A stretch of DNA of 32,000 bases, taken from Candidatus Scalindua sp. GTDB lineage: Bacteria; Planctomycetota; Brocadiia; Brocadiales; Scalinduaceae. The notes below the pieces were generated by a model, which saw only the letters and a list, made by a program, of their open reading frames with translations, did no database searches and was not told the DNA's origin. The position numbers were made by a program, and so were the translations under genes. Location: contig JALDRA010000001.1 of NCBI GenBank assembly GCA_031316235.1, positions 3,450,001 to 3,482,000 of the forward strand, written 5' to 3'. Below, piece after piece: positions 987-30,445 of this stretch (the first letter of the stretch is position 1; each line of letters opens with the position of its first letter).

Positions 987-1098
987 TATACTGAAACCGA
1001 TTTGGTTTTCGGTTTTTCTGGAAACCAAATCTTGGTGAAGGCATACTCGCTCCATTTTATCTCAGATTTTATCCGAAAACCATTATGAGATGAGTATA
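987..1098 (+). repeat. modular palindromic intergenic element, copy 1 (modules A+C, canonical)
   Basis: tatactgaaaccgatttggttttcggtttttctggaaaccaaatcttggtgaaggcatactcgctcc...cattatgagatgagtata. It differs from copy 3 at about 6 of 112 positions by eye. It lies between hisD and hisC. Confidence 0.9.
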
Positions 1099-1152
1099 AT
1101 TCTGATCAGAAACCAGGTTTTCTCACATTCATTTTGACTCTTTAATTCTGGA

Positions 1153-2241
1153 GTGTCCAGACTGGATTTTATTACCATGACAACACGATCAAGTTACTTT
1201 AGAAAGAACATTGATAGAATGGCCGGATACGTTCCTGGAGAACAACCCCGGGATGGCGCGTATATCAAGCTCAATACTAATGAGAATCCGTATCCACCAT
1301 CACCAAAAGTACTGGCGGCATTGAAGGAGGCTGTGGATGAAAAATTGCGGCTCTATCCCGATCCGAATGCAACGGCTGTGAAGGAAAAGGCGGCCGAGAT
1401 TTTTAGCACACGTCCTGAACGTGTCATGGTGGGGAATGGTTCAGATGAACTATTAACCATAATAATTCGCTGCTTTGTAGGGGAGGGAGATAAAGTTGTT
1501 TATCCCTATCCAACGTATCTGCTTTATAAGATCCTCTCTGATATTCAAGATGGTACGGTGTGCACTGTGAACTTTCCTGAAGACTATTCCCTACCGGAAG
1601 AGATTATAAGCAAGGGGGCATCAATTATTTTTATCTGTAATCCGAATTCTCCTTCCGGAACGATGGTATCTGTCGATGAGGTATCAAACATTGCAGGTAA
1701 GACAAACAGTGTAATTGTAGTTGATGAGGCATATGTTGATTTTGCTGATGATAACTGCTTGAGACTGGTAGACGAACATCCAAACCTGATTATCCTGCGT
1801 ACTTTGTCAAAGTCATATTCTTTAGCGGGAATGCGTCTGGGGTTTGCTGTTGCCCAGGAAGGCTTGATAGGCGGGATGATGAAGGTCAAGGATTCGTATA
1901 ATGTAAACAGGCTGGGTATGGCAGCTGCAATTGCAGCATTAGGTGATCAGGAAACATTCCGGGAAAACGTTGCCAGAATAAAACGGACGAGAGGACACCT
2001 CGTGGACTCACTGGGGAAACTGGGGTTTCATGTATATCCGTCCCAGACTAATTTTGTGATGATAAAGTGTGCGGGCAGCTCTGTGGCCAAAGGGATATAT
2101 GGAAGATTGAAAGAACAGAAGATTCTTATCCGGTACATCGATGAACCAAGCCTGGACGATTGTCTCAGAATTACGGTTGGGACAGATGGGGAAATAGAGA
2201 CATTGCTCAAGAAAATGGAGGAGATAAAACGTTCTCTGTAG
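1153..2241 (+). CDS. hisC: histidinol-phosphate aminotransferase
   Basis: The translation contains GYVPGEQP, LNTNENPYPPSP, YPDP, NPNSPSG and TLSKSYSLAGMRLG (PLP lysine motif). The start is ambiguous: GTG at 1153 or ATG at 1177. Confidence 0.93.
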   Translation: MSRLDFITMTTRSSYFRKNIDRMAGYVPGEQPRDGAYIKLNTNENPYPPSPKVLAALKEAVDEKLRLYPDPNATAVKEKAAEIFSTRPERVMVGNGSDELLTIIIRCFVGEGDKVVYPYPTYLLYKILSDIQDGTVCTVNFPEDYSLPEEIISKGASIIFICNPNSPSGTMVSVDEVSNIAGKTNSVIVVDEAYVDFADDNCLRLVDEHPNLIILRTLSKSYSLAGMRLGFAVAQEGLIGGMMKVKDSYNVNRLGMAAAIAALGDQETFRENVARIKRTRGHLVDSLGKLGFHVYPSQTNFVMIKCAGSSVAKGIYGRLKEQKILIRYIDEPSLDDCLRITVGTDGEIETLLKKMEEIKRSL

Positions 2242-2370
2242 GATTTCGGAATTCGGCCTGCGGATTGTGGAATATTTACCTTGTATCAGGACTGCCGCTT
2301 GAAAACCCTCCTGGAAACATCATGCACAGGTTGGCAGTTTGTGTTCAGTCACTAAATAGGAGAAACTGCT

Positions 2371-2961
2371 ATGAGTATGAGAACGTCACATATCTGCAGA
2401 AAAACAGATGAGACAAGCGTAAGTCTATCGCTTAATCTGGATGGAAAGGGGAAGAGGTCGATATCTACCGGCATTGGTTTCTTTGATCACATGCTGGATC
2501 TCCTGGCAAAACACGCTTTGTTTGATCTGGAGATCAAGGCATCAGGAGATACTGAGGTTGACTATCATCATACGGTTGAAGACGTTGGTATCTGTTTGGG
2601 CCGTGCAGTGAAGGAGGCTCTGGGTGATAAAGCCGGGATTACCCGTTTTGCTAATGCCAGTATTCCAATGCAGGAGTCTCTGGCCAATGTTGCGGTTGAT
2701 ATAAGCGGCCGTTCTGCACTGGTATTTCGTGTGAAATTGGAGACAGAAAAGATAGGGGATTTTGATACGGAATTGATAAAAGAGTTTCTGGAGGCGTTTA
2801 CGGTAAATGCCGGCCTCAATCTTCATGTTGAAGTTCCGTACGGTGAAAATGCACATCACATATCAGAGGGTATATTCAAAGGTATTGCAAAGGCACTTGA
2901 CAGGGCCATGAGAATAGACAACCGAACGGACGGTGTTCCCTCAACAAAGGGTGTACTCTGA
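2371..2961 (+). CDS. hisB: imidazoleglycerol-phosphate dehydratase
   Basis: The translation contains [55 protein letters not shown] and EGIFKG.AKAL. An aggag ribosome-binding site lies 8-12 nt upstream of the ATG. Confidence 0.95.
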
Positions 2962-3064
2962 TATGAGGAGATTACTCAGGTTGTCAGGCTCTGATTGAAA
3001 TGGGTTCTGTGAAAAAAGGCCAGGTCTGCAAGGGAGCAGGAAAGACTGTTTTCAGAACCCTGTT

Positions 3065-4467: not shown

Positions 4468-4580
4468 TATACTAAAACCGATTTGGTTTTCGGTATTACC
4501 GGAAACTAAATATTTGTTGCCGTTATGCTCGCTCAATTTTATCTCGGATTGTATCAGAAAATCATTATAAGATGAGTATA
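4468..4580 (+). repeat. modular palindromic intergenic element, copy 2 (A+C, more diverged)
   Basis: tatactaaaaccgatttggttttcggtattaccggaaactaaatatttgttgccgttatgctcgctcaattttatctcggattgtatcagaaaatcattataagatgagtata. It lies 17 nt upstream of the hisA start. Confidence 0.88.
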
Positions 4581-4596
4581 AAACAATAATATACCC

Positions 4597-7304: not shown

Positions 7305-7412
7305 AGAGATCCGGCAGGTCTGGCAACACCTGCTGAGAGTTAAACAAGGAGCACGGTAAATCCACTTCAGGGAGACTGTATAGAGCAGGAGGGATCAGCC
7401 CGGAGTGTAACT

Positions 7413-7523
7413 ATACTAAAACCGATTTAGTTTTCGGTTTTACTGGAAACCAAATCTTGGTGAAGGTATACTCGCTCAATTTTATCTCGGATTTTATCCG
7501 AAAACCATTATGAGATGAGTATA
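7413..7523 (+). repeat. modular palindromic intergenic element, copy 3 (A+C, canonical)
   Basis: tatactaaaaccgatttagttttcggttttactggaaaccaaatcttggtgaaggtatactcgctcaattttatctcggattttatccgaaaaccattatgagatgagtata. It lies between the convergent GH15 and receiver genes, and ends 21 nt from the receiver stop codon. Confidence 0.92.
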
Positions 7524-7544: not shown

Positions 7545-8048
7545 CTACTTCCAATTGCCTTCAGCATCCCGTATTTTCTTACATGAGGGACAAATGGGAA
7601 GCAGGCCGGATAGGGTGGTTATCTTGGGCAGTGCGCCCTGGAGCTCTTCAATGAGTCTCCTTCGTTCTTTTTCTATCCGATGCTTATAAAGGGCAATTTC
7701 TATCGATATTTTTAAATCCTCATTTACGAAAGGCTTGACAATATATCCGAATGGTTCAGTTATGCTTGCCCGTTCCAGTGTATTCTCATCTGCATATGCG
7801 GTGAGATAGATAATGGGAATATTGTAACAAGCGCGGATTTGACGGGCAGCTTCTATTCCATCCATTTCACCCTTTAACACAATATCCATCAGCACTAGAT
7901 CGGGCCTACCCTTTTCAGCATTTTGAATTGCCTCTTCCCCTGATGAGGAGACAGAGGTTACCGTATAGCCTAAACTCTCCAGACTCATTTTAATATCTTC
8001 AGCAGTTATCCATTCATCTTCAACAATCATTATTTTAGCCTTTGCCAT
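7545..8048 (-). CDS. CheY-like response regulator receiver with a 40-aa C-terminal tail ending in a CxxCKKIRD motif
   Basis: Receiver motifs are present: IMIVEDE, DLVLMDIVL and YIVKPF. The tail RRRLIEELQGALPKITTLSGLLPICPSCKKIRDAEGNWK has no DNA-binding domain. It is a close paralog of 13176..13568. Confidence 0.9.
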   Translation of the reverse strand: MAKAKIMIVEDEWITAEDIKMSLESLGYTVTSVSSSGEEAIQNAEKGRPDLVLMDIVLKGEMDGIEAARQIRACYNIPIIYLTAYADENTLERASITEPFGYIVKPFVNEDLKISIEIALYKHRIEKERRRLIEELQGALPKITTLSGLLPICPSCKKIRDAEGNWK

Positions 8049-8193
8049 AGTTTGTTCCTTTCTTACAGAAATAGTTAATATGATGGACCTGTTATCTTAC
8101 CTCTGGTCAGCCATAAGGGGTAAACTTTCAATGAATTTTTTCCTGAGACCTGAGACGTCAGAGAACTCATGACCAGTGACGTATGGCTACTTA

Positions 8194-10014
8194 TCATATC
8201 CTCTCCTTGTATTTTACCTCCTGGAAATTGAGTCGAAATTCTGTCCCTCCATTTCTCTTGAGTCCCAGTTTACCCTGTAATTGATTCTCTGATAAATTGG
8301 TTATCAGCCTCAAACCGAGTGACTGGGTATTTCTGTAATCTAACTCTTCTGGAATTCCGATACCATTGTCACTGACTATGAGTTCAAACATCTCAGATTC
8401 TGAGTCCGCATTGGGCAATCGTTGATTTCCCGGCTGACTGGTATCAATTGGAATCTGACGCAGGGATATTTTTATTTCACCATCTTTTTTTCCCGGAAAG
8501 GCGTATTTCAGGGAGTTCGTTACCAGTTCATTGACAATCAATCCGCAGGGAATTGCTGTATCAATTCCAAAGGGAACCGTTTCAATATTCATCTTCAGTG
8601 CGACTTTGCCATCACTCACTTTATATGATAAAAACAGGTCATTTACAAGATTCTTAATGTAATCATTGAAATCAATATTTGCCAGATCTTTGGAACGGTA
8701 GAGTTTCTCGTGAATTAGAGCCATGGCCTTTATCCGGTTCTGGCTTTCTTTAAATATCTCAACATACTTCTCATCTTTGATATGGCTTGATTGAAGCCTG
8801 AGCAGACTTGAAATAACCTGCATATTATTCTTGACCCTGTGATAAATTTCCCGTGAAAGCATATCCTTTTCCCTTATGGATTCCCTGAGTTTGTTCATCA
8901 TTAAATTAAATGATTCAACCAGGTCTTTTATTTCATCACTCCTTTTTCCAATGGTTATCGGATGTTCCAGATCACCATCCGCCATCCTCTTGGTCCCCTC
9001 TATCAGTTTTTGTATAATCGCGTTTGTTTTGCCGGAAATAACAAACGCAAATATAAATACCAGAAATAATACTCCACCTCCGGAGAGCAAAAAAACATAT
9101 TTAATCCTCAGTAACGGCAGAAAGGCATCTTTAACATATTTTTCTGCCAGGATCACCCAGTTTGCTTCAGGTACAAACAGCGCTGTACCCAATACCCGAA
9201 TACCCTTATAATTTTCATAGATTCCGGATAATTCTCTCTTTGAGGTCAGCACTTCTTTCACCGCCTTTGTATCAACTATCTGATTAAAACCAGACCCCTC
9301 TAGAAAACGTGAATTTAATAACATCAACTTGTTACTGTTTACAATATAAATCTCACCGGAAGGATCAACAAAACTTTCTTTGTCAGAACGGTACATTGGT
9401 TCCTTGAGTATCCCTTCAAGAATATTGCCCTTTACCTTGGTAACGAGAACTCCCATGGGTCTGTGCAGATCTTTGTCTGCAAGGATTGCAGAAAAGACTA
9501 ACTGTAATTCCTCACCCTTTTCCGACCGTTCAAGGGCATCAGAAAAATAGGGCCCCTTACTTTCAAGAGAAAGGAATGGGTCCCTGAAGTAAACTTCACT
9601 CGATTTGTCTTTGCCTATCTGGTGGCGTGAAGATGAAGCGATGACCTCTCCTCCTTTGTTGAGAATTGATACCTCAATCAGGTCAGGATCCAGCCTTTTT
9701 TGTTTTTTTATGAGGTAGGTATTCAACCTTTCACTGATCTCAGAATAATCAGGAGTTTTTCGATTCATCTGTTCTACACAGTCACTGATAAATCCGTCTG
9801 AACTGAAATCGACAACCCTGATTCTTCTTTTCGACAGTAAGAGTTTCAGTTGTTCATTCAGACTGTGTGCCGTAGACCTTAGATGCCTTTGTACCTCTTC
9901 TCTTGTCCTGTCATGGACATATTTATACACTATGGTGCCTGCAATACCCAGGGGTACGATGGTTACCAATAAAAATAAAAGAAACAGTTTTACACCAAAT
10001 TTTGTAAGCTTCAT
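8194..10014 (-). CDS. sensor histidine kinase: TM, extracytoplasmic Cache-like region, TM, HAMP, HisKA_2-type DHp, HATPase
   Basis: It has an N-terminal TM (FLLFLLVTIVPLGIAG), a second TM (VFLLSGGGVLFLVFIFAFVI) and a HAMP region (GDLEHPITIGKRSDEI). The H-box EIYHRVKNNMQVISSLLRLQ is typical of HisKA_2/HWE-like kinases. The ATPase motifs are NELVTNSLKYAF and DNGIGIP. Confidence 0.9.
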   Translation of the reverse strand: MKLTKFGVKLFLLFLLVTIVPLGIAGTIVYKYVHDRTREEVQRHLRSTAHSLNEQLKLLLSKRRIRVVDFSSDGFISDCVEQMNRKTPDYSEISERLNTYLIKKQKRLDPDLIEVSILNKGGEVIASSSRHQIGKDKSSEVYFRDPFLSLESKGPYFSDALERSEKGEELQLVFSAILADKDLHRPMGVLVTKVKGNILEGILKEPMYRSDKESFVDPSGEIYIVNSNKLMLLNSRFLEGSGFNQIVDTKAVKEVLTSKRELSGIYENYKGIRVLGTALFVPEANWVILAEKYVKDAFLPLLRIKYVFLLSGGGVLFLVFIFAFVISGKTNAIIQKLIEGTKRMADGDLEHPITIGKRSDEIKDLVESFNLMMNKLRESIREKDMLSREIYHRVKNNMQVISSLLRLQSSHIKDEKYVEIFKESQNRIKAMALIHEKLYRSKDLANIDFNDYIKNLVNDLFLSYKVSDGKVALKMNIETVPFGIDTAIPCGLIVNELVTNSLKYAFPGKKDGEIKISLRQIPIDTSQPGNQRLPNADSESEMFELIVSDNGIGIPEELDYRNTQSLGLRLITNLSENQLQGKLGLKRNGGTEFRLNFQEVKYKERI

Positions 10015-10053
10015 TTTTTCACAATACTTCCATCCCCAGGGTATCGGTTCAGG

Positions 10054-10194
10054 TACACTGAAACTGCTTTGGTTTTAGATTTATCTAAAAACCAAAGCCT
10101 GATTAATGGTATCCCCGGACAAAAAACGCCGAGGACTTGTACTCGCTCCGTTTTTTCCCGGATTTTATCCGAAAACCTTTATAAGATGAGTATG
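10054..10194 (+). repeat. modular palindromic intergenic element, copy 4 (variant A + inserted module B + C)
   Basis: tacactgaaactgctttggttttagatttatctaaaaaccaaagcctgattaatgg + tatccccggacaaaaaacgccgaggactt + gtactcgctccgttttttcccggattttatccgaaaacctttataagatgagtatg. It sits inside the DUF3365-kinase operon gap. Confidence 0.85.
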
Positions 10195-10241
10195 CTGAGT
10201 TATGCATCGTGCGAGACCGGGAAATTACCTTTTCCATAAAC

Positions 10242-10862
10242 TTAATCTTCAAGCGAAACAATAATACTTATCCCGCCACGAACATCACCCACGTTGTATC
10301 CATATGCATGGTCATATGGATATCTCTCTTCAAGAAATTTTCTTATTTCCGGTCGTGTCTTCTTCTTTGTACTATGACATTCTAAGCATGCCTTCTCAAC
10401 ATAAATAGGCTTCATGTATCTATATATTTTTCTTCCGCCTGTTACAAGGATCTCTCCAAATCCGGTGCCTTTCGGATAGTCTGATGCATCGAACAATTTC
10501 AATACCTGCTCTTCCCATTTATCCGGTGCGTTATCAGGGTTTCTGAGTTTAAGGCTGGTTTGCTTCAGTTTATGTCCGGTCCTCAGACTGAAATCATTAG
10601 CCACTTCTGAACCAACCATAGCCGGTATAAATCCTTTGAAGTAGTAGTTGCCGGATATCGGATCCATGTTGATAAGGTCCTGGTTCTTTGCTATAACGCT
10701 TCTCGTAGCAATCAGCATGTCAATTGTTGTATCGGCCAGCGTCTGCAGGCATTTCATGTGATTATTTTTTCGGTTTCCCGCATAATCAGATCTCGTATTG
10801 ATGCTGCAGAGTAAAATTACAAGAGCAAGTATTGAAAAGATTCTTTTGTTTATAGTGTACAT
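10242..10862 (-). CDS. secreted DUF3365 (Tll0287-like) c-type heme protein
   Basis: It has a single CLECH heme c motif (10374..10388) and the conserved GNYYFKG, LKQTSLK.RNP.N.PD.WE, MKPIYV and GDVRGGISI blocks. The signal-peptide-like MYTINKRIFSILALVILLCS favours a start at 10862; the ORF-track alternative is 10925. Confidence 0.85.
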   Translation of the reverse strand: MYTINKRIFSILALVILLCSINTRSDYAGNRKNNHMKCLQTLADTTIDMLIATRSVIAKNQDLINMDPISGNYYFKGFIPAMVGSEVANDFSLRTGHKLKQTSLKLRNPDNAPDKWEEQVLKLFDASDYPKGTGFGEILVTGGRKIYRYMKPIYVEKACLECHSTKKKTRPEIRKFLEERYPYDHAYGYNVGDVRGGISIIVSLED

Positions 10863-11313
10863 GGTGCCATTCTCCCATAATTTTGATATAAATCGGCAAA
10901 TGGTTCTTTTTTTGAAAGGTATCACATTGGGGATATTTCCTGAAGCTCCTTTACTCTTTGTGGTGCATGCATTGACTTTACTATATAATTTTGGATTTCA
11001 TATATCAAGCATAAATAACATGGACAGATAGCCTGATTACGTTAGTTTAGTATTGCAAAGACCAGCATATTAGTATAGGATTCAGGTAATACCAATAGTT
11101 TGATCACCGCGTTTCCTTTTAGATAGTTACCGATTCATAATACCAGCATGAAATAAATTGTTATACTTTACGACATTGTGAAAGCGTATCTGAAAAGGTA
11201 AAACTTTCATCGATTGGGGAGGTGACGATTGATGATACAGAAGCTAAAAGCATTTTTAAGTATATCAATCACATGTGGCTTATTTCCTACCGCCGGCGTA
11301 CGCTCTATCCTGA

Positions 11314-11396
11314 TATACGCATCTCATAATGGTTTTCGGATAAAATCCGGGAAAAAATTGAGCGAGTATAACTGCAACCAAATCGGTTTTAGTATA
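11314..11396 (-). repeat. modular palindromic intergenic element, copy 5 (inverted; module A hairpin deleted, C intact)
   Basis: The reverse complement reads tatactaaaaccgatttggttgcagt + tatactcgctcaattttttcccggattttatccgaaaaccattatgagatgcgtata. Confidence 0.85.
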
Positions 11397-11725
11397 TCTC
11401 CTTACCGGAATATCATATCTGGAACAATCAGAGATCTGCACTTAATCCTCAATCCTGTAATGGGTATTTTCATCTGGAAGTACGTATTTTTCTGTTGTGA
11501 GATATTCGGTCATATGCAACGTATTTTCAAAGAGAACTTTTTTCACATCAGCCAGCGTATAAATAATAAGGGCAACCCGGGAGAGGAATTGCCATGTGCC
11601 CAGGTGTGGTTATATAAAAACGGAGTATTAGAAGGGTTAAGGCACAGACATGACAGTATCACCCGGGGTGCAGTAGAATTTTTTCACGACAACAGGCTGC
11701 CTGTTAATAATCGGTTGCAATAATT

Positions 11726-13175: not shown

Positions 13176-13568
13176 TTACTCCTTCTCTTTTTCGGTTTTG
13201 TGCTTATAAAGGGCCAGCTCGATCGCTATCTTCAGATCTTCATTTAAGAAAGGTTTCACAATATATCCAGATGGCTCGGTTAACTTCGCCCTCTCGAGTA
13301 CCTCGTCATCGGCGTAAGCGGTGAGATAGATAATGGGAATGTGGAAACGGGAGCGGATCTGATTGGCAGTTTCTATCCCGTCCATTTCTCCCTGTAACAC
13401 AATATCCATCAGTACTAAATCAGGTTTGTCCTTTTCAGCGTTTTTAATTGCCGCATCCCCTGATGATGATATTGAGGTTACGGAATATCCTAAACTCTGC
13501 AGGCTCATTTTTATGTCTTCAGCGGTGATCCATTCATCTTCAACGATCATTATCTTTGCATTTACCAT
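13176..13568 (-). CDS. single-domain CheY-like response regulator (paralog of 7545..8048, no tail)
   Basis: It has the receiver motifs IMIVEDE, DLVLMDIVL and YIVKPF. Its start lies 4 nt downstream of the Amt-kinase stop, so the two are likely co-transcribed. Confidence 0.92.
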   Translation of the reverse strand: MVNAKIMIVEDEWITAEDIKMSLQSLGYSVTSISSSGDAAIKNAEKDKPDLVLMDIVLQGEMDGIETANQIRSRFHIPIIYLTAYADDEVLERAKLTEPSGYIVKPFLNEDLKIAIELALYKHKTEKEKE

Positions 13569-13572
13569 TATC

Positions 13573-15582
13573 TTATATTCTCTGTTTGTATTTTGCTTCC
13601 TTGAATGTAATCTGAAATTTTGTTCCCTGCTTCCGATCTATCTCAATTTTACCCTGGAGTTGATTTTCCGCTAAATTGGTGATCAGCCGTAGACCGAGAG
13701 ATTGTGTGTTGCTGAGATCCAGTTCCTCTGATATACCAACACCGTTATCACTTACTATGAGCTCAAACATATCGGATGTTAAACCTGTAATTCTATGCAG
13801 GGATATTCTGATTTCACCGGCTTTTCCTTTTGGGAATGCGTATTTCAATGAATTGGATACCAATTCATTGATGATAAGTCCGCAGGGAATGGCGGTATCG
13901 ATCCCCAGTGAAATAGTATCAATATTCATCGTTAACTCAATATCTGAGGAACTGACTTTATAGGATAGAAACAGATCATTTACCAGATCTTTAATATAGT
14001 CGTTGAATTCAACATTAGCAAAGTCTTGAGACCGATAAAGTTTTTCGTGGATAAGAGCCATTACCTTTATACGGTTCTGGCTCTCTTTTGCCATCTCTAA
14101 AGTTTTCTCATCCGTTACGTTTCTGGTTTGAAGGCGGAGCAGGCTGGACATGACCTGCATGTTGTTCTTAACCCGATGGTGGATTTCTCTCAGAAGCAAT
14201 TCTTTCTCTTTGAGAGAATTTGCTGTTTTTGCGGCCTCTTTTTGCAGGGCATCCATGACCCAGTTATAACGTTCGGCAATCTGACCGATTTCCGTGAATG
14301 GTTCTACCGGTATACGGAGACTCATGTCTCCTGTCCTCACCTGGCTGTCCATAGTCCTGAACATATCCAGGAGTTCTGTAGTAGCTCCGTGTTCAGAGAC
14401 ATTAAGACCGATATATTCGTCCTCAGGGGTAACGCGAAGCGGAAAATAGCGGTTTATCATGAGAAGTAATGGAAATGATATGCCGAATGTCCATAAGGAA
14501 CATACACCTATACCGATGCATTGAGTTAAAAATTGATCTCCGCGGGGGAGTCCTGTGCCGAGGAGTTCTGTGCTGCCGAAGATGGCAGCTGCGAGTGTTC
14601 CCCAGACCCCTGCACCCAGGTGAACCTGAATCGCACCTACCGCATCATCAATCTGTAAATATTCCAGCAGATAATCAACCCCCAGCATGATCATACCGCC
14701 TATTCCTCCGATGGCTATGGCCGACAGGGTATTTACCACATGTACCGATGCAGTAATGGCTACCAGGCCCGCAACTGATCCAAATATTACCAGTTCTACA
14801 TCCGCCTGCTTCCGAAGTATCCATCCCGTTGTAAGTGTGACCATAGAACCGGAGGCGCCTGCCAGAAAGGTATTTGTAATAATGCCCGGGACCTGGTCGT
14901 TCAAAGCAAGTGTGCTGCCGCCGTTGAATCCAAACCAGCCCATCCAGAGGAGTAACACCCCGAGCACGGACAGGGGAAGATTGCTGCCATGAATCTTTCT
15001 GGGAGGGCCAACCGGAGGGAAACGGCCCTCACGAGGTCCGATAACCAATAGTGCTGCCAATGCAACCCATCCGCCGACACTGTGGACTACCGTTGCCCCG
15101 GCGAAGTCGACGAAACCTATCTGAGCAAGCCAGCCAGATACCATATTCCTTTGTTCACCATTCCAGGCCCAATGGCCAAAGATCGGGTATATGAGGCTTG
15201 AGAGGAGTATTGATATGATAATGTAGCTTCTGAATCGAAGGCGCTCAGCTGTGGACCCGGAGACTATTGTTACTGCTGTGGCACAGAACATGATCTGGAA
15301 CAGAAAAAAAGCGGTCGGCCAGGGACCTTTGTCAGTAGCCAGAAAAAAACCAGTTGTTCCTATCCAGCCGCTGCAGGTTACGCCGTACATAAGAGCGAAA
15401 CCAAAAGACCAGTATAAGATAGTAGAGATCCCAAAGTCGGTTATATTTTTTATGGCAACATTGATGCTGTTTTTTGACCGTGTCAATCCCGATTCAAGGC
15501 AGGTGAACCCCGCCTGCATGAGAAATACCAGACCGGCACAGATCGTGACCCAAAAGATATCTTCCAGCGATTTCTCTATCAT
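13573..15582 (-). CDS. ammonium transporter (Amt) domain fused to a HisKA_2-type histidine kinase
   Basis: The N-terminal ~400 aa carry Amt signatures (AGFTCLESGLTRSKN, FAGATVVHSVGGWVALAALLVIGPR, VHLGAGVWGTL). The C-terminal 204 aa (13576..14187) hold the H-box EIHHRVKNNMQVMSSLLRLQ plus an HATPase domain. Confidence 0.93.
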   Translation of the reverse strand: MIEKSLEDIFWVTICAGLVFLMQAGFTCLESGLTRSKNSINVAIKNITDFGISTILYWSFGFALMYGVTCSGWIGTTGFFLATDKGPWPTAFFLFQIMFCATAVTIVSGSTAERLRFRSYIIISILLSSLIYPIFGHWAWNGEQRNMVSGWLAQIGFVDFAGATVVHSVGGWVALAALLVIGPREGRFPPVGPPRKIHGSNLPLSVLGVLLLWMGWFGFNGGSTLALNDQVPGIITNTFLAGASGSMVTLTTGWILRKQADVELVIFGSVAGLVAITASVHVVNTLSAIAIGGIGGMIMLGVDYLLEYLQIDDAVGAIQVHLGAGVWGTLAAAIFGSTELLGTGLPRGDQFLTQCIGIGVCSLWTFGISFPLLLMINRYFPLRVTPEDEYIGLNVSEHGATTELLDMFRTMDSQVRTGDMSLRIPVEPFTEIGQIAERYNWVMDALQKEAAKTANSLKEKELLLREIHHRVKNNMQVMSSLLRLQTRNVTDEKTLEMAKESQNRIKVMALIHEKLYRSQDFANVEFNDYIKDLVNDLFLSYKVSSSDIELTMNIDTISLGIDTAIPCGLIINELVSNSLKYAFPKGKAGEIRISLHRITGLTSDMFELIVSDNGVGISEELDLSNTQSLGLRLITNLAENQLQGKIEIDRKQGTKFQITFKEAKYKQRI

Positions 15583-15684: not shown

Positions 15685-15692
15685 ATTATTTT
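15685..15692. repeat. target-site duplication, left copy (ATTATTTT)
   Basis: The identical 8-mer directly abuts the outer end of each IS inverted repeat (15685..15692 and 17903..17910). Confidence 0.85.
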
Positions 15693-15719: not shown

Positions 15720-15732
15720 ATAATAAAAGATC

Positions 15733-15761: not shown

Positions 15762-15767
15762 TCTTCC

Positions 15768-16433
15768 ATGAATTATCCAGGCGGCAAAGGAGGTGTATTC
15801 CAAAAGTTAATCAATCTTATGCCACCCCATGATGTCTACATAGAGACTCATTTGGGTGGTGGCGCTGTTATACGGAACAAACGACCTGCCAGGAGTAATT
15901 TTGGGATAGAAATTGACTCGGAAGTTGTTGAGATGTGGACAAATATGCATCCAATAGGTTTTGAACTGGTCCATGATGACGCAATTAATTATCTGAATAA
16001 TTATCATTTCACAGGAAAAGAACTGGTATATTGTGACCCACCATATCTTCGCGAGACAAGGAAAAAGTATGGACGGCTATATAAATATGACTATAGCCGT
16101 GCGCAGCACATCGAACTTTTGGAAGTTTTGAAAACTCTTCCCTGCATGGTGATGATATCCGGTTACGAGTCAACCTTATACAAAGAATCATTGCGTAGCT
16201 GGCAGACACATTCTTTTCAGGCCGTCTGTCATCATGGCGTAGCAACGGAGTGGTTATGGATGAACTATAGTGTTCCGGTAGGACTGCACGACTATCGTTA
16301 TCTTGGCAATAACTTTCGTGAGCGGGAACGGATAAAGAGGAAGACCAAAAGGTGGACAGCGAAACTTAAATCCATGCCTGTATTAGAACGTCAGGCGTTA
16401 CTATTCGCCATAGATGTATTCAGGGAGCGATAG
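15768..16433 (+). CDS. D12-class (Dam-family) N6-adenine DNA methyltransferase, orphan (no restriction partner seen)
   Basis: It has YPGGKG at the N-terminus, a HLGGGAV (FxGxG-like AdoMet) motif and the catalytic DPPY in VYCDPPYL. It lies inside the IS inverted repeats. Confidence 0.82.
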   Translation: MNYPGGKGGVFQKLINLMPPHDVYIETHLGGGAVIRNKRPARSNFGIEIDSEVVEMWTNMHPIGFELVHDDAINYLNNYHFTGKELVYCDPPYLRETRKKYGRLYKYDYSRAQHIELLEVLKTLPCMVMISGYESTLYKESLRSWQTHSFQAVCHHGVATEWLWMNYSVPVGLHDYRYLGNNFRERERIKRKTKRWTAKLKSMPVLERQALLFAIDVFRER

Positions 16434-16456
16434 AAGTCTTTTGAAAGGGGGTATTT

Positions 16457-17875
16457 TTGACTTGTGTGGTGAAAAGAAAGATAGAGTCATCCGATAACTG
16501 GAGAGCTTTATTTTATGGTTTTTTAGACACCCGATTGGATAAGATTGAGGAAGAGTACTCAATGGAAGATTTAGGAGAAATCTCAAAAGCTGTTTTCGAA
16601 GAGAGAGCGGAGATATTAGGACAACTGATTCTTGGGTTCATAGAGAGGAAATTTGGACATTTATTGAATCAGCAAAGCTGCGATTGCCCCGAATGCGGCA
16701 AGGGTATGCAAAGACAAGGAAAACAATCCAAGACTATCCAAACCCTTGCCGGACAATTTGAATTAACCAGGCCTTATTTTTATTGCAGAGCGTGTCGTTT
16801 AGGATACTATCCTTTAGACGAAGCCCTTGGATTGTCTGAATCATCGAAGCAATATGATGTGCAAGATGTGGAAGCCTGGTTGTCAAGCGAAACGGCCTAT
16901 GAGACGGCCAGCGAAACCTACGAGAGAATAACCGGAGTAAAGCTGAGTGAACATCATATGCATGAGACCACGAATGCCATTGGTCAAGAAGTGGGAATTT
17001 TGGATGTCTGCCCGCCCAGGGAAGAGATTGATAAGCAGATAGAAAACCTCTCAGTGGATAAGTTTCGTCGTCCCATTATGATGCTTGCCCTGGATGGAGC
17101 CCACGGGCCGATGCGTCCCGAGCCAAGTCCTCACCCCCGTAAAGGGAAAAGAGGCAAGGGAGAATACAAAGAGATTAAAGGTTTTAGACTGTATCTCATC
17201 GATGGTCAAACTATTATTCATTTAATTAGCTGGCACCAGGTTTGTGCAGATCACGAATTAGCAGAATACTTGGTTAAGATCAAAGAAGCCGGGCTTATTC
17301 CCCACGAGAAGATACGCCTGGGAATTATAGGAGACGGTGCTCCCTGGATCTGGAACCGATGTAAAGAAATATTTCCCTCGGCAAAAGAGATTCTCGACTA
17401 TTACCATTGCTCGGAGTATGTCCATGGTGTAGCCAATGCCCATTACGGAAAAGAGACAAGAGAGTCTCTACAGTGGTGTGAGGCGACTCTGACAAGAATA
17501 TATTATGGTTACCATGAAGAGGTGCTTGGCGGTCTTGGAAAGATGAAAGCCCGAACTCAAGATATTCAAGATAAAATTGACAAGTTTTATACCTATCTCA
17601 CAAATCATTGTGAAAAGATGGATTACAGTTCCGCCAAGCGTGGAGGATATCACATTGGCAGCGGTGCTATTGAAAGCGCCAATAAATTCATTAGCCATAC
17701 AAGGCTTAAACGATCAGGAGCTTGGTGGTATATCCAAAACGCTAATAACATACTCAAGATCAGATGCGCGAAATATAACGGTACTTACGATAAAGTTATC
17801 GAAAAATACAAAAGGGACGACCAGGAAAGAATTAAAAATAAAAAATTTAAGAGAAGTCTTCGAATTGTTAAATAA
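16457..17875 (+). CDS. ISKra4-family (UPF0236-like) transposase
   Basis: It has a zinc-ribbon-like CDCPECG...CRAC segment, DGAPWIWN, LDYYHCSEYV and HIGSGAIESANKFISHTRLKRSGAWW blocks as I remember them for this transposase family. An aaggggg SD precedes the TTG start. The stop lies just inside the right inverted repeat. Confidence 0.85.
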   Translation: MTCVVKRKIESSDNWRALFYGFLDTRLDKIEEEYSMEDLGEISKAVFEERAEILGQLILGFIERKFGHLLNQQSCDCPECGKGMQRQGKQSKTIQTLAGQFELTRPYFYCRACRLGYYPLDEALGLSESSKQYDVQDVEAWLSSETAYETASETYERITGVKLSEHHMHETTNAIGQEVGILDVCPPREEIDKQIENLSVDKFRRPIMMLALDGAHGPMRPEPSPHPRKGKRGKGEYKEIKGFRLYLIDGQTIIHLISWHQVCADHELAEYLVKIKEAGLIPHEKIRLGIIGDGAPWIWNRCKEIFPSAKEILDYYHCSEYVHGVANAHYGKETRESLQWCEATLTRIYYGYHEEVLGGLGKMKARTQDIQDKIDKFYTYLTNHCEKMDYSSAKRGGYHIGSGAIESANKFISHTRLKRSGAWWYIQNANNILKIRCAKYNGTYDKVIEKYKRDDQERIKNKKFKRSLRIVK

Positions 17876-17902
17876 ATTTTACAATAAATTGGGAATGCAC
17901 CC
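17876..17902 (-). repeat. IS right terminal inverted repeat
   Basis: Its reverse complement matches 15693..15719 at 24/27 positions. Confidence 0.88.
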
Positions 17903-17910
17903 ATTATTTT
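17903..17910. repeat. target-site duplication, right copy (ATTATTTT)
   Basis: It is identical to 15685..15692. Confidence 0.85.
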
Positions 17911-20986: not shown

Positions 20987-20987
20987 T

Positions 20988-21099
20988 TATACTCATCTCA
21001 TAATGGTTTTCGGATAAAATCCGAGATAGAATGGAGCGAGTATACCTTCACCAGGATTTGGTTTTCAGAAAAACCGAAAACCAAATCGGTTTTAGTATA
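20988..21099 (-). repeat. modular palindromic intergenic element, copy 6 (inverted, canonical A+C)
   Basis: Its reverse complement is near-identical to copy 1. It starts 2 nt after the activator stop codon. Confidence 0.92.
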
Positions 21100-21244
21100 G
21101 TGTGTGAACGAAAACCCTGTGTGTGAACGAAAACTGTCCAGGTACAAGGAGCGCAATAAGTACGTAACCGGAGCGTACTCAAGTACGTGAGGATTACGTA
21201 CTTATTGCGGCAACACCGTAGATGGGTAGTTTTCGTTCACACAC
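21100..21244. repeat. 145-bp nested palindrome with 16/17-nt terminal repeats (GTGTGTGAACGAAAAC x2 direct, x1 inverted)
   Basis: The 16-mer occurs at 21100..21115 and 21119..21134. A 17-nt perfect inverted partner pairs 21119..21135 with 21228..21244. An inner 16-bp perfect stem pairs 21152..21167 with 21194..21209. The innermost pairing is cgtact/agtacg. Confidence 0.8.
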
Positions 21245-21331
21245 TAATTAGTTGCAAAACAAGACTCTATAGTTTAGGATAGCTTTTTTAGAGAGGTACT
21301 ATTTTATTAATGAGAAATGAGGAGAATTATT

Positions 21332-23555: not shown

Positions 23556-23927
23556 TCAGGGCGATAACTTTTTGTCTACTTCATCGAGTAATTTTTCCTT
23601 GGTGAGATACGGCTTTTCAATGTAGACAACATTTGGATCTAACTTTTTTAGGTTTTTATACTGTTTTTGTGAGCAGGCACTGATTATTATTACGGGAATA
23701 TCTTCGTATTCCGGCATGCCTTTGAGGTGTAAGAAAAACGTGTCTCCTGTTACCATATCCATAAGCATGTCCAGCAGTATCAGATCAGGTTTCGTCTCTT
23801 CCAGCTTCATCATTGCTTCATCACCATCATAGGCAAAAATCAGATCGTAATCTCTCTCTTCAAATATTGCAGCATACAGTTCGTGAAAGGCTTGTTCATC
23901 CTCTACTATCAGTATTTTCTTCGCCAT
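23556..23927 (-). CDS. single-domain CheY-like response regulator
   Basis: It has ILIVEDE, DLILLDMLM and a YIEKP motif. It lies 64 nt downstream of the kinase 23992..25908. Confidence 0.9.
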   Translation of the reverse strand: MAKKILIVEDEQAFHELYAAIFEERDYDLIFAYDGDEAMMKLEETKPDLILLDMLMDMVTGDTFFLHLKGMPEYEDIPVIIISACSQKQYKNLKKLDPNVVYIEKPYLTKEKLLDEVDKKLSP

Positions 23928-23991
23928 ATCTTCCCCTTTTATGAAAAATTTAATCTTGATATAATGACAATTTCAAAATGAATGAAACAAA

Positions 23992-25908
23992 CTACTGAGG
24001 ACTGCACATGCACTCATGGTAATCGTCAAGACTTGGTTTTGGGAGAGCAAATTTAAATGTTGTCCCTTTGCCCGTTCGACTGCTTTCGAACCAGATTCTG
24101 CCGCCATGTGCCTTAATAATTGTGTTACAGATTGCCAGCCCTAAACCAACGCCTTCACTTTTTATTTTTTTTTCCTGATAAAACCGATCAAATATCTTAC
24201 CCTGCAGGTGTTTTGGCAAACTTATGCCCACTCCGGTATCCTTGACTGATACTTCAATCTCATCATACCTGTTCTTTGCAGAGACGATAATAGTTCCAGC
24301 TTTTGTGTACTTGATAGCATTATCTATTAAATTAGAAACAACTCTCATGATCTTCATTCTATCTCCCAGAAATTCGGGCAAGTGATCAGCAATGTCTGTT
24401 TTTATTGACAAATCTTGATTCTCCGCTATCAATCTGAGACCTGCAGTTACCTGAAGTATTAATTCTCCGATATTAATAGGTTCTTTATCGTATTTTTCTG
24501 TACCGGATTCGAGATCCGCCAGAGTCAATACACTTTCTATCGTTTTATTCAGTCTTCCAATATTTACTTTTATGATACTGATAAAATGGTCATTCTTGTG
24601 GTTTGCTTTCCTTCGATCTGTTCCGTTATAGACCTGTCTATCCAACCATAATTCCAATGCAAGCCTCAGTTGAGACAACGGAGATTTCAGTTCATGTGAT
24701 ACATCCTTGATTATGTTATCCTTCAATCTGTCAAGACTTCTTAGTGCGGCATTACTCTCGTTTGAAATCCTGAGTTGTTTCACCATTGAGTTGAATTCCA
24801 CAACAACCTCTTGAATTTCATCATTCCTTTTACCAATTGTTATTGGTTGGGTTAAATTACCATGAGCCACTTTTTTGATACCTATCAGCAATTTTCTTAT
24901 GTCTGCACTCAAATGGCTGAAAATGACAGTGGTGCCTGAAAGTATTAAAAATACTACTACACTCCCTGCAATACCAAAAATATATTTTAATCTTGTCAGT
25001 GGTAAAAATGCCTCTTCAAGATTTTTCTCTGTTACAATAGTCCACTGTGTTTCCGGTACAAACAGGAGAGTTCCCAACACCGTAATACCATAGGGGTTTA
25101 CATAAGATCCAGAATAATTCTTCCCTAATCCTGACACTCTTCGTAGTGCTTCAGGATCGATTGATTTTCTGTGCGAACGATTATCGTTCGTTTTTAATTT
25201 CGCAATTATCGTTGATGCATTGGATAAAATATATACATTGCTGAAATGAGCGGAATGGTTTTCTTTTTGTTCATATTGAGTATAATGCCTCTGTGTATCA
25301 ATGATGTTCTCGAGAATAGTGCCTTTTACTTTCATGGCGATAATACCCAAAGGATTATGAACTATTCTGTCTGTTAACATTGAGGAAAATATGAGATCAG
25401 AGATGCTTTCAGTGCCCGACTCAGGCAGGGCATCTGCAAAGAAAAACCCCGATGTCTCCGCTGAAAGGTATGGGAAACGGAAGTAGTTTTTTTGTGATTC
25501 GTTGTTTCCGATCAGCTCTTGAGAAGTCGAGGCGATAATCTGACCGACAGGATCAAGAATTGAAATGCTGATAATATCAGGATCCAGGCTTAATTTATTT
25601 GTCAACAAGTGGTTGTTTAATGCTCTCCTGATCTCAGAGGTGTTCTCAGGCTGCGTTATCAACTGTCCGGTATAATCTCTGATTAAACCGTCAGAACTGA
25701 AATCTACAACCCTGCATCGCTTTTTCTGCAACAAGAGGTCCAGATGAGATTTAATAGTATTGGCAGTTGATTCTAATGCTCTGAACGCCTCATCTTTTGT
25801 CTGGTCATGGAGATATTTGTAAACTATTGTGCCGGTAATACTGATGGGAACTATTGAAACCAAGAGGAAATAACATAAAAGTTTTTTGCCTAATTTGGTC
25901 AGTTTCAT
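23992..25908 (-). CDS. sensor histidine kinase: TM, Cache-like region, TM, HAMP, classical HisKA, HATPase
   Basis: The N-terminal 370 aa are collinear with and similar to 8194..10014 (MKLTK.G.KL...FLLV.IVP..I.GTIVYKY.HD, RVVDFSSDG.I.D, LDPD, PITIGKR.DEI). It then switches to the H-box DVSHELKSPLSQL and the ATPase motifs NLIDNAIKYT, DTGVGI and GVGLGLAI. Confidence 0.9.
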   Translation of the reverse strand: MKLTKLGKKLLCYFLLVSIVPISITGTIVYKYLHDQTKDEAFRALESTANTIKSHLDLLLQKKRCRVVDFSSDGLIRDYTGQLITQPENTSEIRRALNNHLLTNKLSLDPDIISISILDPVGQIIASTSQELIGNNESQKNYFRFPYLSAETSGFFFADALPESGTESISDLIFSSMLTDRIVHNPLGIIAMKVKGTILENIIDTQRHYTQYEQKENHSAHFSNVYILSNASTIIAKLKTNDNRSHRKSIDPEALRRVSGLGKNYSGSYVNPYGITVLGTLLFVPETQWTIVTEKNLEEAFLPLTRLKYIFGIAGSVVVFLILSGTTVIFSHLSADIRKLLIGIKKVAHGNLTQPITIGKRNDEIQEVVVEFNSMVKQLRISNESNAALRSLDRLKDNIIKDVSHELKSPLSQLRLALELWLDRQVYNGTDRRKANHKNDHFISIIKVNIGRLNKTIESVLTLADLESGTEKYDKEPINIGELILQVTAGLRLIAENQDLSIKTDIADHLPEFLGDRMKIMRVVSNLIDNAIKYTKAGTIIVSAKNRYDEIEVSVKDTGVGISLPKHLQGKIFDRFYQEKKIKSEGVGLGLAICNTIIKAHGGRIWFESSRTGKGTTFKFALPKPSLDDYHECMCSPQ

Positions 25909-26024
25909 TTTTTTATTAACATCGAATCACGAAAAAACCCATATCACTCATGAAAGAGAGACCAAAGAAGCAAGCCTATTACGATCGACAGGAGATTGTG
26001 TTGAAGTGAACCATAATAATCACG

Positions 26025-26708
26025 TTAATGTTTTGTCATTTCTACTGGAATAGCAATACTTATCCCGCCGCGAATATCTCCCTCTTTATATCCATGTGCC
26101 AGGTCATGGGGATATTTTCTTGCCATAAACTGTCTGACTGCAGGTTTAAGTTTCTGTTTTTCACTATGGCATTCCAGACAGGTCTTATCAACATAAATAG
26201 GTTTCATGAATCTATATGTCTTCTGTCCATCTATCTCCACAATCTCTCCAAAGCTGACAGCTTTTGAACTTTCTGCTGCCTCAAATGATCTCAATACTTT
26301 CACTTCCCACTTATCGGGAGTATTAGATGGATTCCTGACCTTGAGGCTTGTCTGCTTCAGTTTCCACCCGGTCAGGAGAGTGAAGTCGTTTGCGATTTCT
26401 GATCCTACTACTGCGGGTACAAATCCTTTGAAATAATAATTTCCTGTTATCGGGTCTCTGTTTATAAGCTCCTGGTTCTTTGCAATTATGTTTCTTGTGA
26501 CCATCAACAGGTCTGTTATTATTCTTGCAAATTTCTGTAAGTTTTCCTTTTCAACAGTTCCAGGCTTATTAGATATATCGATGCGTGAACCATATACGAA
26601 CGCCTGTCTGTCATGCTCAGCGGCAAAACAGATACTATCTGTTGCACTATACGTAAGCAGGAGAGAAACTATTACAGCAAAATTGAAATTAAAAAGAGTA
26701 TAATGCAT
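26025..26708 (-). CDS. secreted DUF3365 (Tll0287-like) c-type heme protein, paralog of 10242..10862
   Basis: It has CLECH at 26166..26180, the same conserved blocks as the paralog, an N-terminal signal-like segment, and a gagggggg SD upstream of the ATG. Confidence 0.88.
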   Translation of the reverse strand: MHYTLFNFNFAVIVSLLLTYSATDSICFAAEHDRQAFVYGSRIDISNKPGTVEKENLQKFARIITDLLMVTRNIIAKNQELINRDPITGNYYFKGFVPAVVGSEIANDFTLLTGWKLKQTSLKVRNPSNTPDKWEVKVLRSFEAAESSKAVSFGEIVEIDGQKTYRFMKPIYVDKTCLECHSEKQKLKPAVRQFMARKYPHDLAHGYKEGDIRGGISIAIPVEMTKH

Positions 26709-27204
26709 TTGAACCCCCCTCTGTAAAACGTTAGGTTTGTAATGTAGCTGTGTGGATATCTCTGTAAGAAAACAGCGAAGGCTCCACAGATTTTTTCTCT
26801 TTATGGTGCCTGTTTCACACTATGTGTATGGATCTTAATCCCATTATCATGCATGTACGTGCGAATCCTTATACTATGGTTGTGATCATCAAGAGTCTTA
26901 TCAGGTTCCGGCTACAAAATCAGTGTATCTGGTGTCCGAGGCAGTTTTGGTCTGACCGCAGGGTGTCTGTTCCGGCACTGGCTGCTGTTCTCAAACACTG
27001 AAAGGTTAGATCCGCAAACAAGATACCGATTTCTCTCTATAGTATAGAATGTTTATAAGTCTCTGTTGTTTAGAAGGGTAGGGTAAATATGCCTGTTGAA
27101 AGCTTACTGTTTGTTATAGAAGCGTAACAAAAAATGTTATTGTGCTGTAACAAACAGTAAACCATGTGAGAGCAGGGTGTGATTTTTACTGTAGAGAGTA
27201 GTAA

Positions 27205-27344
27205 TATACTAAAACCAAAGCCTGGTTGCCGGTATCCCTGGACAAAAGCTTGTGCCGAGGACTTTCCCCGGACCAGGCGCCGAGGACTTTACTCACTCCG
27301 TTTTTTTCCGGATTTTATCTGAAAATCGTTATAAGATAAGTATA
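27205..27344 (+). repeat. modular palindromic intergenic element, copy 7 (A hairpin deleted, two tandem B modules, C)
   Basis: tatactaaaaccaaagcctggttgccgg + tatccctggacaaaagcttgtgccgaggacttt + ccccggaccaggcgccgaggacttt + actcactccgtttttttccggattttatctgaaaatcgttataagataagtata. Confidence 0.85.
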
Positions 27345-29132: not shown

Positions 29133-29200
29133 TGGGGCTGTCCTTTTTTTTTCATGAATTGTGGATGCTCTCTTGATAGGGGGGAAATTAATTTTTTCGA

Positions 29201-29311
29201 TATATTAAAACCGATTTGGTTTTCGGTTTTACCGGAAACCAAATCCTGGTGAAGGTATACTCGCTCAAATTTATCTCGGTTTTTATCCGAAATCCAGTAT
29301 GAGATGAGTAT
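29201..29311 (+). repeat. modular palindromic intergenic element, copy 8 (A+C, slightly degenerate termini)
   Basis: tatattaaaaccgatttggttttcggttttaccggaaaccaaatcctggtgaaggtatactcgctcaaatttatctcggtttttatccgaaatccagtatgagatgagtat. Confidence 0.9.
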
Positions 29312-29660
29312 TCGGCAGTTCTTTTATCCATTTTTAATGATTTTCTGAGCTTCTTCCTTATAAAGCGGGTCAACGCAAACCAGGAGCCACCCAGCGGTAA
29401 TTCCAGGAATTGTACATGAACCTGCCGAACCGAAGCGGTAGAACAAGGGAGCCTGAGCCGTACCACGATGAAGGAAAAGGATACCGGTGAGGTATATGAC
29501 ACGGTATCAAATTTGACAGGTGATTACTATATATTTTTATTCAAGATCTCAAATATCGCTTCTTCATGTTTTTGCCACGCAGATAGCCACCGTATAATAA
29601 AAAAATAAAGAGGGGTGTGGAAAGGAGAGTAGATTCAGCTAGCGATGCTTATCCGTAACG

Positions 29661-30050
29661 TTACAATTGGACAGATTCGACCTTCAGGGTTTCAGTGAAC
29701 TGCAAAGCGATACACCATATCTTTTTTGTTATGTCTTGCCTGTTAATTCTGATTACCAGACCATTTCCGACAAGTGTGACAGTTTTTTCAGGTAACCTGG
29801 GTGTGGGGATTTTTGCAACTATTTCTATCTTGATAATCTTTCCCAGGGGAAATGATTCCAATTGGTCTGTATTTACATCAAAAGAAACACCCCCTGCGCA
29901 GATATTTTTTGACAGTAACTCTAATTCTGGGTCAACAGACAGTGTTATTGGTAATGAAAGTTCCAGCCTGGTATCAGTTCGTTTTTCAATCTTTTTCGCT
30001 ATCTTGGTTAAGGTTGTACTCATATAGCCCTCCCGTACAAGGCTATCCAA
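29661..30050 (-). CDS. PilZ-domain protein (putative c-di-GMP receptor)
   Basis: It has EKRTDTR (RxxxR-like) followed by NICAGGVSF (D/NxSxxG-like) at PilZ spacing, with a single-domain size. The likely start is the ATG at 30023 (MSTTL...). Confidence 0.6.
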   Translation of the reverse strand: MDSLVREGYMSTTLTKIAKKIEKRTDTRLELSLPITLSVDPELELLSKNICAGGVSFDVNTDQLESFPLGKIIKIEIVAKIPTPRLPEKTVTLVGNGLVIRINRQDITKKIWCIALQFTETLKVESVQL

Positions 30051-30308
30051 AATATAGTATAAGAGTCAAATAAATATACTATATAAGCCTATTTGTCAAG
30101 AAAAATCCATATTTTTCAGAGGCGAATTTGCCTTGAGTGGCGGGTATAGGGAAAAAGAGCATGAGGACATCTGTTGAATGGAGAAGGTAAAGACGCGGCG
30201 GGATACGGCCTCTGTGTATCTGTTTCCGGTGGTTGCGGGATGAAAAGACTTGTTCTAAAATGTATAAACCATTGTTGCGACAGGTGTTGATCTCATGGTA
30301 CGTCAGAT

Positions 30309-30445
30309 TATACTAAAGCCGATTTGATTTTCGGTTTTACCGGAAACCAGATCCTGGTGGTATCCCCGGACAAAAAGCGTCGAGGACCTTACTCGCTCAA
30401 ATTTATCTCGGATTTTATCCGAAATCCAGTATGAGATAAGTATAT
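30309..30445 (+). repeat. modular palindromic intergenic element, copy 9 (A + B + C)
   Basis: tatactaaagccgatttgattttcggttttaccggaaaccagatcctggtgg + tatccccggacaaaaagcgtcgaggacct + tactcgctcaaatttatctcggattttatccgaaatccagtatgagataagtata. Confidence 0.9.

Follow-up and report, generated by a model that had tools for sequence, protein, structure and literature searches.

The stretch of DNA analysed here, called the window below, comprises 32 kb of contig JALDRA010000001.1 of Candidatus Scalindua sp., with a G+C content of 41.7% and genes that include a his operon and a sigma-54 NtrC-type regulator. It contains exactly nine copies of one repeat family. A preliminary description of the window had already counted nine, and repeat finding, two degenerate patterns built from the copies and nhmmer now agree on this number: the two patterns matched at these nine places only, and searches with hidden Markov models of the repeat modules yielded no additional copy in the window. 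The pattern for one module, termed C, gave nine matches against 0.00 expected in 100 shuffles. The canonical copy consists of two hairpin modules, A and C, to which G+C-rich inserts (B) may be added. The nine copies are:

987–1098, plus strand: copy 1, canonical 112-nt A+C form, between hisD (stop at 953) and a hisC-like aminotransferase gene (start at 1153)
4468–4580, plus strand: copy 2, A+C with a diverged A/C linker, ending 16 nt before the start of a His_biosynth gene (4597)
7412–7523, plus strand: copy 3, canonical 112-nt form, between convergent genes (stops at 7304 and 7545)
10054–10194, plus strand: copy 4, A (of the AGA/TCT stem subtype), one G+C-rich B insert and C; between Tll0287-like and histidine kinase genes, both on the minus strand, and hence antisense to that operon
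11314–11396, minus strand: copy 5, 83-nt derivative that has lost the A hairpin between short direct repeats (TTGGTT), with C intact, in a divergent intergenic region
20988–21099, minus strand: copy 6, canonical 112-nt form, starting 1 nt past the stop of the gene for the NtrC-type regulator; at the other end it has a TA in common with a copy of a second repeat family (21098–21253)
27205–27344, plus strand: copy 7, left terminus retained, A hairpin deleted, two B units, C intact
29201–29312, plus strand: copy 8, canonical form with the terminal A changed to T, 68 nt upstream of the start of a sulfate-permease gene (29132)
30309–30444, plus strand: copy 9, A, one B insert and C, 25 nt ahead of an open reading frame (ORF) starting at 30470, within a divergent promoter region

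Six copies keep the coordinates first assigned to them, while copy 3 starts at 7412 rather than 7413, copy 9 ends at 30444 rather than 30445, and copy 8 extends to 29312, where its last base is mutated to T. The inverted termini TATACT/AGTATA and a third TATACT at the A/C junction were correctly recognized at the outset, as was the number of differences between copies 1 and 3, which is exactly 6 in 112 positions. All nine copies lie between Pfam-supported genes and, as first reported, no supported coding sequence is interrupted. The estimate that about half of the intergenic gaps are occupied applies to gaps of at least 100 nt (9 of 19, 47%); among all gaps between credible coding sequences the share is 36% (9 of 25). 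Two ORFs, 11229–11723 over copy 5 and 29188–29502 over copy 8, have no Pfam support and are spurious, because their only similarity elsewhere is to the translated repeat. The consensus has no stop across the full 112 nt in frame 3 of its reverse strand (YSSHNGFRIKSEIKLSEYTFTKIWFPVKPKTKSVLV), and gene callers will therefore extend or invent ORFs over copies, as in these two cases.

The preliminary reading of the element as two modules was correct and can be refined, since each module is a 57-nt A+T-rich hairpin unit that is also found solo. The canonical 112-nt form consists of two diverged units, A and C, joined at a common TA. Loci from related genomes (described below; labelled L001 and so on) contain mini-elements of 57 nt with the same termini, either palindromic (A/A′ at L085 1105 and C′/C at L067 5038) or fusions of A and C (L001 2557, L001 2896 and L039 2691), as well as end-to-end remnants of about 30–36 nt that again have these termini (L057 6119 and L102 154). 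The 112-nt element is thus a pair of such 57-nt hairpins, joined through one TA and with degenerate inner arms. The outer inverted repeat is short, TATACT(A/C)A; within the 57-nt unit the inverted arms reach 12–22 nt, and the two palindromic mini-elements have repeats of about 22 nt. The structure is strong: canonical copy 3 folds as DNA at −18.6 kcal/mol, far below shuffled sequences (z = −5.6; −5.2 for the other strand).

In longer forms there are one to five G+C-rich hairpin inserts, which separate A from C or sit within their loops. The common insert, B, has the form TCCCCGGAC-loop-GCCGAGGAC, and further G+C-rich hairpins, D, E and F, are located within the loops of A or C. As B, D and F are found only inside or adjoining copies of the repeat, we regard them as components rather than independent repeats. 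The spacing between A and C is quantized, at 7–8 nt without an insert, about 27–37 nt with one unit, and about 53, 73–81, 102–107, 131 and 156–162 nt in larger forms. Shorter forms, of which copies 5 and 7 are examples, result when the DNA between short direct repeats inside the element is deleted. Composites measure 100–250 nt (median 137), compared with 83–141 nt for the window copies, and the G+C content of the repeat is 34% against a background of 40%. A separate G+C-rich palindrome, CCTGCCTGTGCGTA(A/C)G…GCAGACAGG, stands alone downstream of a CCA-adding-enzyme gene (L054 7005–7032), and is also nested as a hairpin within a hairpin, in the C loop of the copy at L054 5326–5527 and in an A loop in L072.

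A strict 54-nt pattern of the C module was scanned over one genome per species for 185,579 species. It was found in at least 117 further 8-kb stretches, all of them in metagenome-assembled genomes (MAGs) of Candidatus Scalindua/Scalinduaceae; SCAELEC01, RBC_AMX3, CBDCUS, OFTM1 and MFD09964 are among the matches listed. The repeat is specific to this lineage of marine anammox Planctomycetota. Together with the window, 117 such loci, drawn from five other MAGs, form the 946-kb set on which the anatomy and mobility of the element were studied; it holds about 200 copies, comprising 151 A..C composites, 37 solo C and 14 solo A modules. No match was detected in plasmids or viral contigs, nor by blastn (word size 11) in 5,426 complete genomes of Escherichia coli, which hold REP, BIME and ERIC sequences. 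A cmscan of the whole window against Rfam (E ≤ 1) returned no match at any copy; the lone signal, a sub-threshold CRISPR-DR53, lies inside a gene away from the copies. Literature searches on Scalindua or anammox miniature inverted-repeat transposable elements (MITEs) yielded no description of the family. The sequence had not been recognized in the preliminary description, which proposed an Rfam search of the consensus as a test of novelty. The sequence family is apparently undescribed, although the type of element is well known.

Evidence for mobility comes from the ends of the element and from comparisons of orthologous sites. The termini do not vary among 123 full copies, and the flanks are degenerate apart from a weak preference with two-fold symmetry about the TA (−2 not C, +2 not G). 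The preliminary description had suggested comparing empty and filled orthologous sites, and we searched for the former by removing elements in silico and looking for the joined flanks. Five comparisons were obtained, with a single TA when the site is empty and TA…TA when it is filled. At L113 1273 the filled sequence is CCTTG-TA[TACT…AGTA]TA-TCTG, whereas other copies of the second repeat family, into which this copy is inserted, read CCTTG-TA-TCTGG; at L096 7096 a copy occupies the same TA of that family in the opposite orientation. The same pattern is seen at L067 2162 compared with L011 and at L025 851 compared with L066. The fifth comparison involves an empty site in the window itself:

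26757–26758, no strand: empty target site, a single TA in GTGTGGA-TA-TCTCTG

The orthologous position in SCAELEC01 (L070 5415–5526) is filled by a 112-nt copy, GTGCTGA-TA[TACT…AGTA]TA-TCTGAA. These patterns imply that insertion duplicates the TA.

Eight pairs of orthologous loci between species differ mostly by lineage-specific insertions and have one shared copy (L014/L077). Lineage-specific insertions are seen at L067/L011, L025/L066, L015/L111 and L070/window. The window is not an exact match to any of the listed MAGs, and its genes are 70–78% identical to their SCAELEC01 orthologues at the DNA level, so that it stems from a further Scalindua-like species. The consensus of the repeat is genome-specific, for instance ATACCGG…ATCAG in CBDCUS. 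Canonical copies of one genome are highly similar, the median identity to the nearest neighbour being 98–99%, and identical pairs occur at different loci. The genome-specific consensus, the lineage-specific insertions and the near-identical copies indicate amplification after the species split, in part very recently. In one comparison (L065 538–677 and L113 6376–6668) a copy is inserted at the start of an ORF, displacing the original ATG with no in-frame ATG to replace it; the N-terminus of this ORF (MDKPKILDQVRDAIR…) presumably resembles those of integron-type integrases.

The main element has repeatedly inserted, at the same internal TA, into a second MITE-like family, which is unrelated to it and about 155 bp long. 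The window copy of this second family (21098–21253) adjoins copy 6, sharing a TA with it, and about 31 copies are present in the loci, for example at L053 1048–1200, L106 1128–1280 and L024 3807–3956. This family is TA-flanked, with the inverted ends TA-GTG(C/T)(G/T)TGAACGAAAAC…GTTTTCGTTCA(C/A)(G/A)CAC-TA and an internal palindrome (AGTACGTGAGGATTACGTA…).

Bacterial MITEs are defined as non-coding elements of less than 200 bp that are A+T-rich and have terminal inverted repeats, TA termini, a target-site duplication and stem-loops (Delihas 2008, PMC2229807). The repeat described here is small, non-coding (no Pfam-supported ORF lies over a copy) and present in many dispersed copies; it has terminal inverted repeats and TA termini with a target-site duplication, it is A+T-rich with a stable stem-loop, and it is polymorphic for presence or absence at orthologous sites. 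Its TA target is duplicated on insertion, as in the IS630/Tc1-mariner group. We thus interpret the nine repeats, with a probability of roughly 0.8, as a family of non-autonomous DNA transposons (MITEs) specific to Candidatus Scalindua/Scalinduaceae. The element proper, TACT…AGTA, enters a TA that becomes duplicated, giving TATACT…AGTATA. It is presumably mobilized in trans, by cut-and-paste; the enzyme would be a DDE transposase of the IS630/Tc1-mariner type that duplicates TA and recognizes the terminal ~20 nt of the hairpin unit. C-bearing copies are 95% intergenic, against about 34% non-coding DNA by a crude gene call; they would pile up between genes because selection removes insertions in coding DNA. 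Effects on adjacent genes, through hairpins in transcripts or the −10-like TATACT/TATAAT ends, would be incidental and copy-specific.

Several observations weigh against this interpretation. Neither the window nor the 946 kb of related loci yielded a transposase with matching ends, so that the IS630/Tc1-type assignment is based on the TA duplication. The outer inverted repeat of the 112-nt form measures only 6–7 nt, the longer ones being internal to the units. As the target and the ends are both TA, a duplication-free model with asymmetric ends is a formal alternative. Finally, species with no more than 70–85% identity in their coding DNA have nearly one and the same consensus, and the orthologous copy at L014/L077 is identical at 109 of 112 positions, though it is nested in another repeat. 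Such identity could be due to selection acting copy by copy instead of to recent activity alone.

The statement in the preliminary description that no autonomous partner is visible has held up in both the window and the related DNA. The transposases seen there (ISKra4-like, ISL3 and IS110-family) all have unrelated ends. Clustering of the 536 ORFs of the loci by multiple copies revealed no partner transposase, orphan terminal motifs led to none, and long-range inverted repeats enclosing ORFs contained only housekeeping genes between separate MITE copies and one ISL3 element with other ends. Two candidates for the parent insertion sequence (IS) were rejected. A pair of ends in L054 corresponds to a full MITE beside the CCA-adding-enzyme gene and a degenerate remnant, and in L046 and L072, where an A-left and a C-right end are separated by 1.7 kb, the DNA between them is an IS110-family element that has entered the B module. 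The ISKra4-like IS of the window (15692–17903) was correctly set apart by its ends, which are 36-nt inverted repeats beginning with TGGGAGCATTCCCGATTTT…; these bounding repeats (TGGGAGCATTCCCGATTTTTTGTAAAATA…) are 83% complementary. This IS carries an ORF resembling D12-type DNA methyltransferases (15768–16433) and a UPF0236 transposase (16457–17875).

Two further readings, both of which we consider unlikely, would make the family more than a selfish MITE. In the first, put forward because no IS630-type partner is visible, the 57-nt hairpin with its TACT/AGTA ends may be the minimal mobile unit of an unrecognized mobilizing system. In the second, copies may have been domesticated, that is, recruited by Scalindua as a genome-wide structured signal, which would fit the near-identical consensus at 70–85% coding identity and the 97% identical orthologous copy. 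If either were true, the G+C-rich hairpins and the IS110-family element in the loops would form a second layer of hairpin-targeting mobile DNA.

Alternatively, the repeat could be a host-selected structured element (an RNA stabilizer, a terminator, or a processing or protein-binding site) whose mobility is secondary or ancient. The strong hairpins, the −10-like termini (TATACT), the similarity of the consensus across diverged species and the fact that 19 of 109 copies begin 0–10 nt after a stop codon would agree with this, as would the shared copy at L014/L077, whose neighbouring coding DNA is only 81–84% identical. Nevertheless, the orientation of copies is unbiased: 46 are oriented like the gene upstream of them and 63 opposite to it (p = 0.125), and for the gene downstream the counts are 42 and 54 (p = 0.26). 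Pairing in the A hairpin reaches 91.8% over 62 distinct sequences, but double substitutions in it do not exceed those in controls that were shuffled or slid, and departures mostly disrupt pairs, so that no excess emerged of the structure-preserving substitutions by which the preliminary description proposed to judge a function. Subfamilies with CGG/CCG and AGA/TCT stems both retain the stem, in a shifted register, and their difference probably reflects one event. In C, conservation is as strong at unpaired positions as at paired ones, which is what recent copying would produce, and copies tolerate large internal deletions and insertions. Matches to promoter-like and terminator-like consensus sequences in the window are at shuffle level. 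Given the lack of orientation bias, covariation above controls, promoter or terminator enrichment and Rfam matches, a function at the RNA level or in regulation is not supported, and we regard host selection as distinctly unlikely to account for the family. The hint of a functional role in the preliminary description therefore went too far.

The preliminary description had left the choice between families of the ERIC/BIME/REP type and MITEs; the MITE alternative stood and the REP/BIME one did not. In a REP/BIME-like scenario, hairpin units would be read as single-stranded DNA, spread by a RAYT (a Y1 transposase related to IS200/IS605) and built into mosaics as in enterobacterial BIMEs. The modular mosaic of hairpin units with a varying number of internal modules, the subterminal position of the hairpins, with no long terminal inverted repeats, and the lack of a DDE partner in our searches are all reminiscent of such a process. 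Among the multi-copy or repeat-flanked ORFs of the loci no RAYT was seen. However, the TA is duplicated in all five filled/empty comparisons, with one TA entered in both orientations. The symmetric ends and the two-fold symmetric target preference are those expected for insertion into duplex DNA. Moreover, the units begin with TATACT rather than a conserved GTAG-type 5′ motif, they are 57 nt long and A+T-rich (34% G+C), whereas REPs are G+C-rich and of 20–40 nt, and they had no sequence match in the E. coli genomes. Because a target-site duplication is present and a GTAG-type REP is not, this scenario is not supported and appears very improbable.

The weakest proposal, that a bridge-RNA-guided recombinase of the IS110 family moves the repeat, the flanking TA being its recombination core rather than a target-site duplication, draws on an IS110-family element lying within the B module of two copies and on the fact that IS110-type insertion leaves the core dinucleotide at both sides, but this element is flanked by a GC core in the B loop and not by TATACT ends, the insertion sites of the repeat show no extended motif beyond the TA where guided recombinases need about 10 or more specified bases, and most copies contain no IS110 sequence, all of which makes it extremely improbable.

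The IS110-family element itself is found twice in Scalindua sp. RBC_AMX3:

L046 4510–6211 and L072 3245–4943: IS110-family element of 1.70 kb, in the B-module loops of two different copies of the repeat

The two elements are 99.7% identical and have a 3′ non-coding end of about 325 nt; in L046 the ORF is split in two, with Pfam matches to DEDD_Tnp_IS110 (1.2e-23) and Transposase_20 (5.8e-15). At either end the element is bordered by a GC, GGACAAA-GC-TTGCTATA…AATAAACCAG-GC-GCCGAGGAC, at a site that reads GGACAAAA-GC-GCCGAGGAC in the B loop. The arrangement suggests that a bridge-RNA-type recombinase targets the MITE hairpin in a sequence-guided manner. Some B loops (window 27233–27290 in copy 7, and linker variants in the loci) hold short strings identical to the ends of the IS110-family element, namely GGACAAAAGCTTGTGCCGAGG with the left-end GCTTG, CCCCGGACCAGGCGCCGAGG with the right-end CCAG, and CCCCGGATAAACCAGGCGCC elsewhere. 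These strings could be remnants after loss of the IS, which may explain part of the variation in loop length.

The closest known families to the MITE family proposed here are Correia/NEMIS, RUP and ERIC. The TATA-type ends of Correia/NEMIS elements of Neisseria resemble −10 boxes, as do those of our repeat, although we take the sequences of the ends to be unrelated. Correia/NEMIS elements are likewise A+T-rich MITEs, of about 100–155 bp, with a TA at both ends from TA duplication; they are also abundant between genes, occur in size classes through an internal block and can form long hairpins (PMC2229807). Their 24-bp terminal inverted repeats span the whole element, whereas the outer repeat is only 6–7 nt here, and the present element, hosted by a planctomycete rather than a betaproteobacterium, is built of two independent 57-nt hairpin units with G+C-rich inserts. 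RUP of Streptococcus pneumoniae is similar in its size of about 107 bp, its intergenic location, its insertion at TA and the high identity of its copies, which suggests recent mobility. Both RUP and our repeat enter other mobile elements, in our case the second MITE family (RUP: PMC2229807). In contrast to our repeat, RUP is not a mosaic with G+C-rich inserts and has an IS630-family partner (IS630-Spn1) with similar inverted repeats.

ERIC/IRU of enterobacteria, an imperfect palindrome of about 127 bp, resembles our repeat in its short (7 bp) terminal inverted repeats and in its TA termini with a target-site duplication (PMC2229807), as well as in its size variants through internal insertions and the open reading frame across the element. 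The sequences are dissimilar, as the E. coli search implies, and ERIC copies are mostly fixed and old, whereas those of our repeat are polymorphic between species and can be identical within genomes. REP/BIME sequences are comparable in that they too are intergenic mosaics of hairpin modules, with internal units that vary in number, but REPs have no target-site duplication and are tied to RAYT genes. What sets our repeat apart from Correia, RUP and ERIC is its sequence, its host among anammox Planctomycetota, the very short outer repeat, the two-unit construction and the nested G+C-rich hairpins.

The window also contains three paralogous sensory gene clusters (7545–10925, 13176–15582 and 23556–26708). 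Two of them consist of a response regulator, a Cache/HAMP histidine kinase and a Tll0287-like gene, with 69–77% DNA identity; the third has a response regulator and an ammonium-transporter–histidine-kinase fusion (13573–15582). The sole public contig found with the NtrC-type protein of the window, Logan contig SRR28338161_64557 (L118, 3138 nt), stops 27 nt past the NtrC-type gene, inside copy 6, which suggests that the repeat breaks short-read assemblies.

The repeat family leaves our understanding of how MITEs work unchanged. Its relevance lies with its host, since Scalindua are the main marine anammox bacteria, have no pure culture and are known almost only from MAGs. By a rough estimate, the repeat occurs about once every 4–20 kb, or a few hundred times per genome, where it spawns spurious ORFs and marks sites of recent rearrangement. 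Its consensus and the TA-insertion rule can be used to mask it during annotation and to search for its transposase, and its insertion polymorphisms could serve as strain markers in Scalindua populations of oxygen-minimum zones and sediments.

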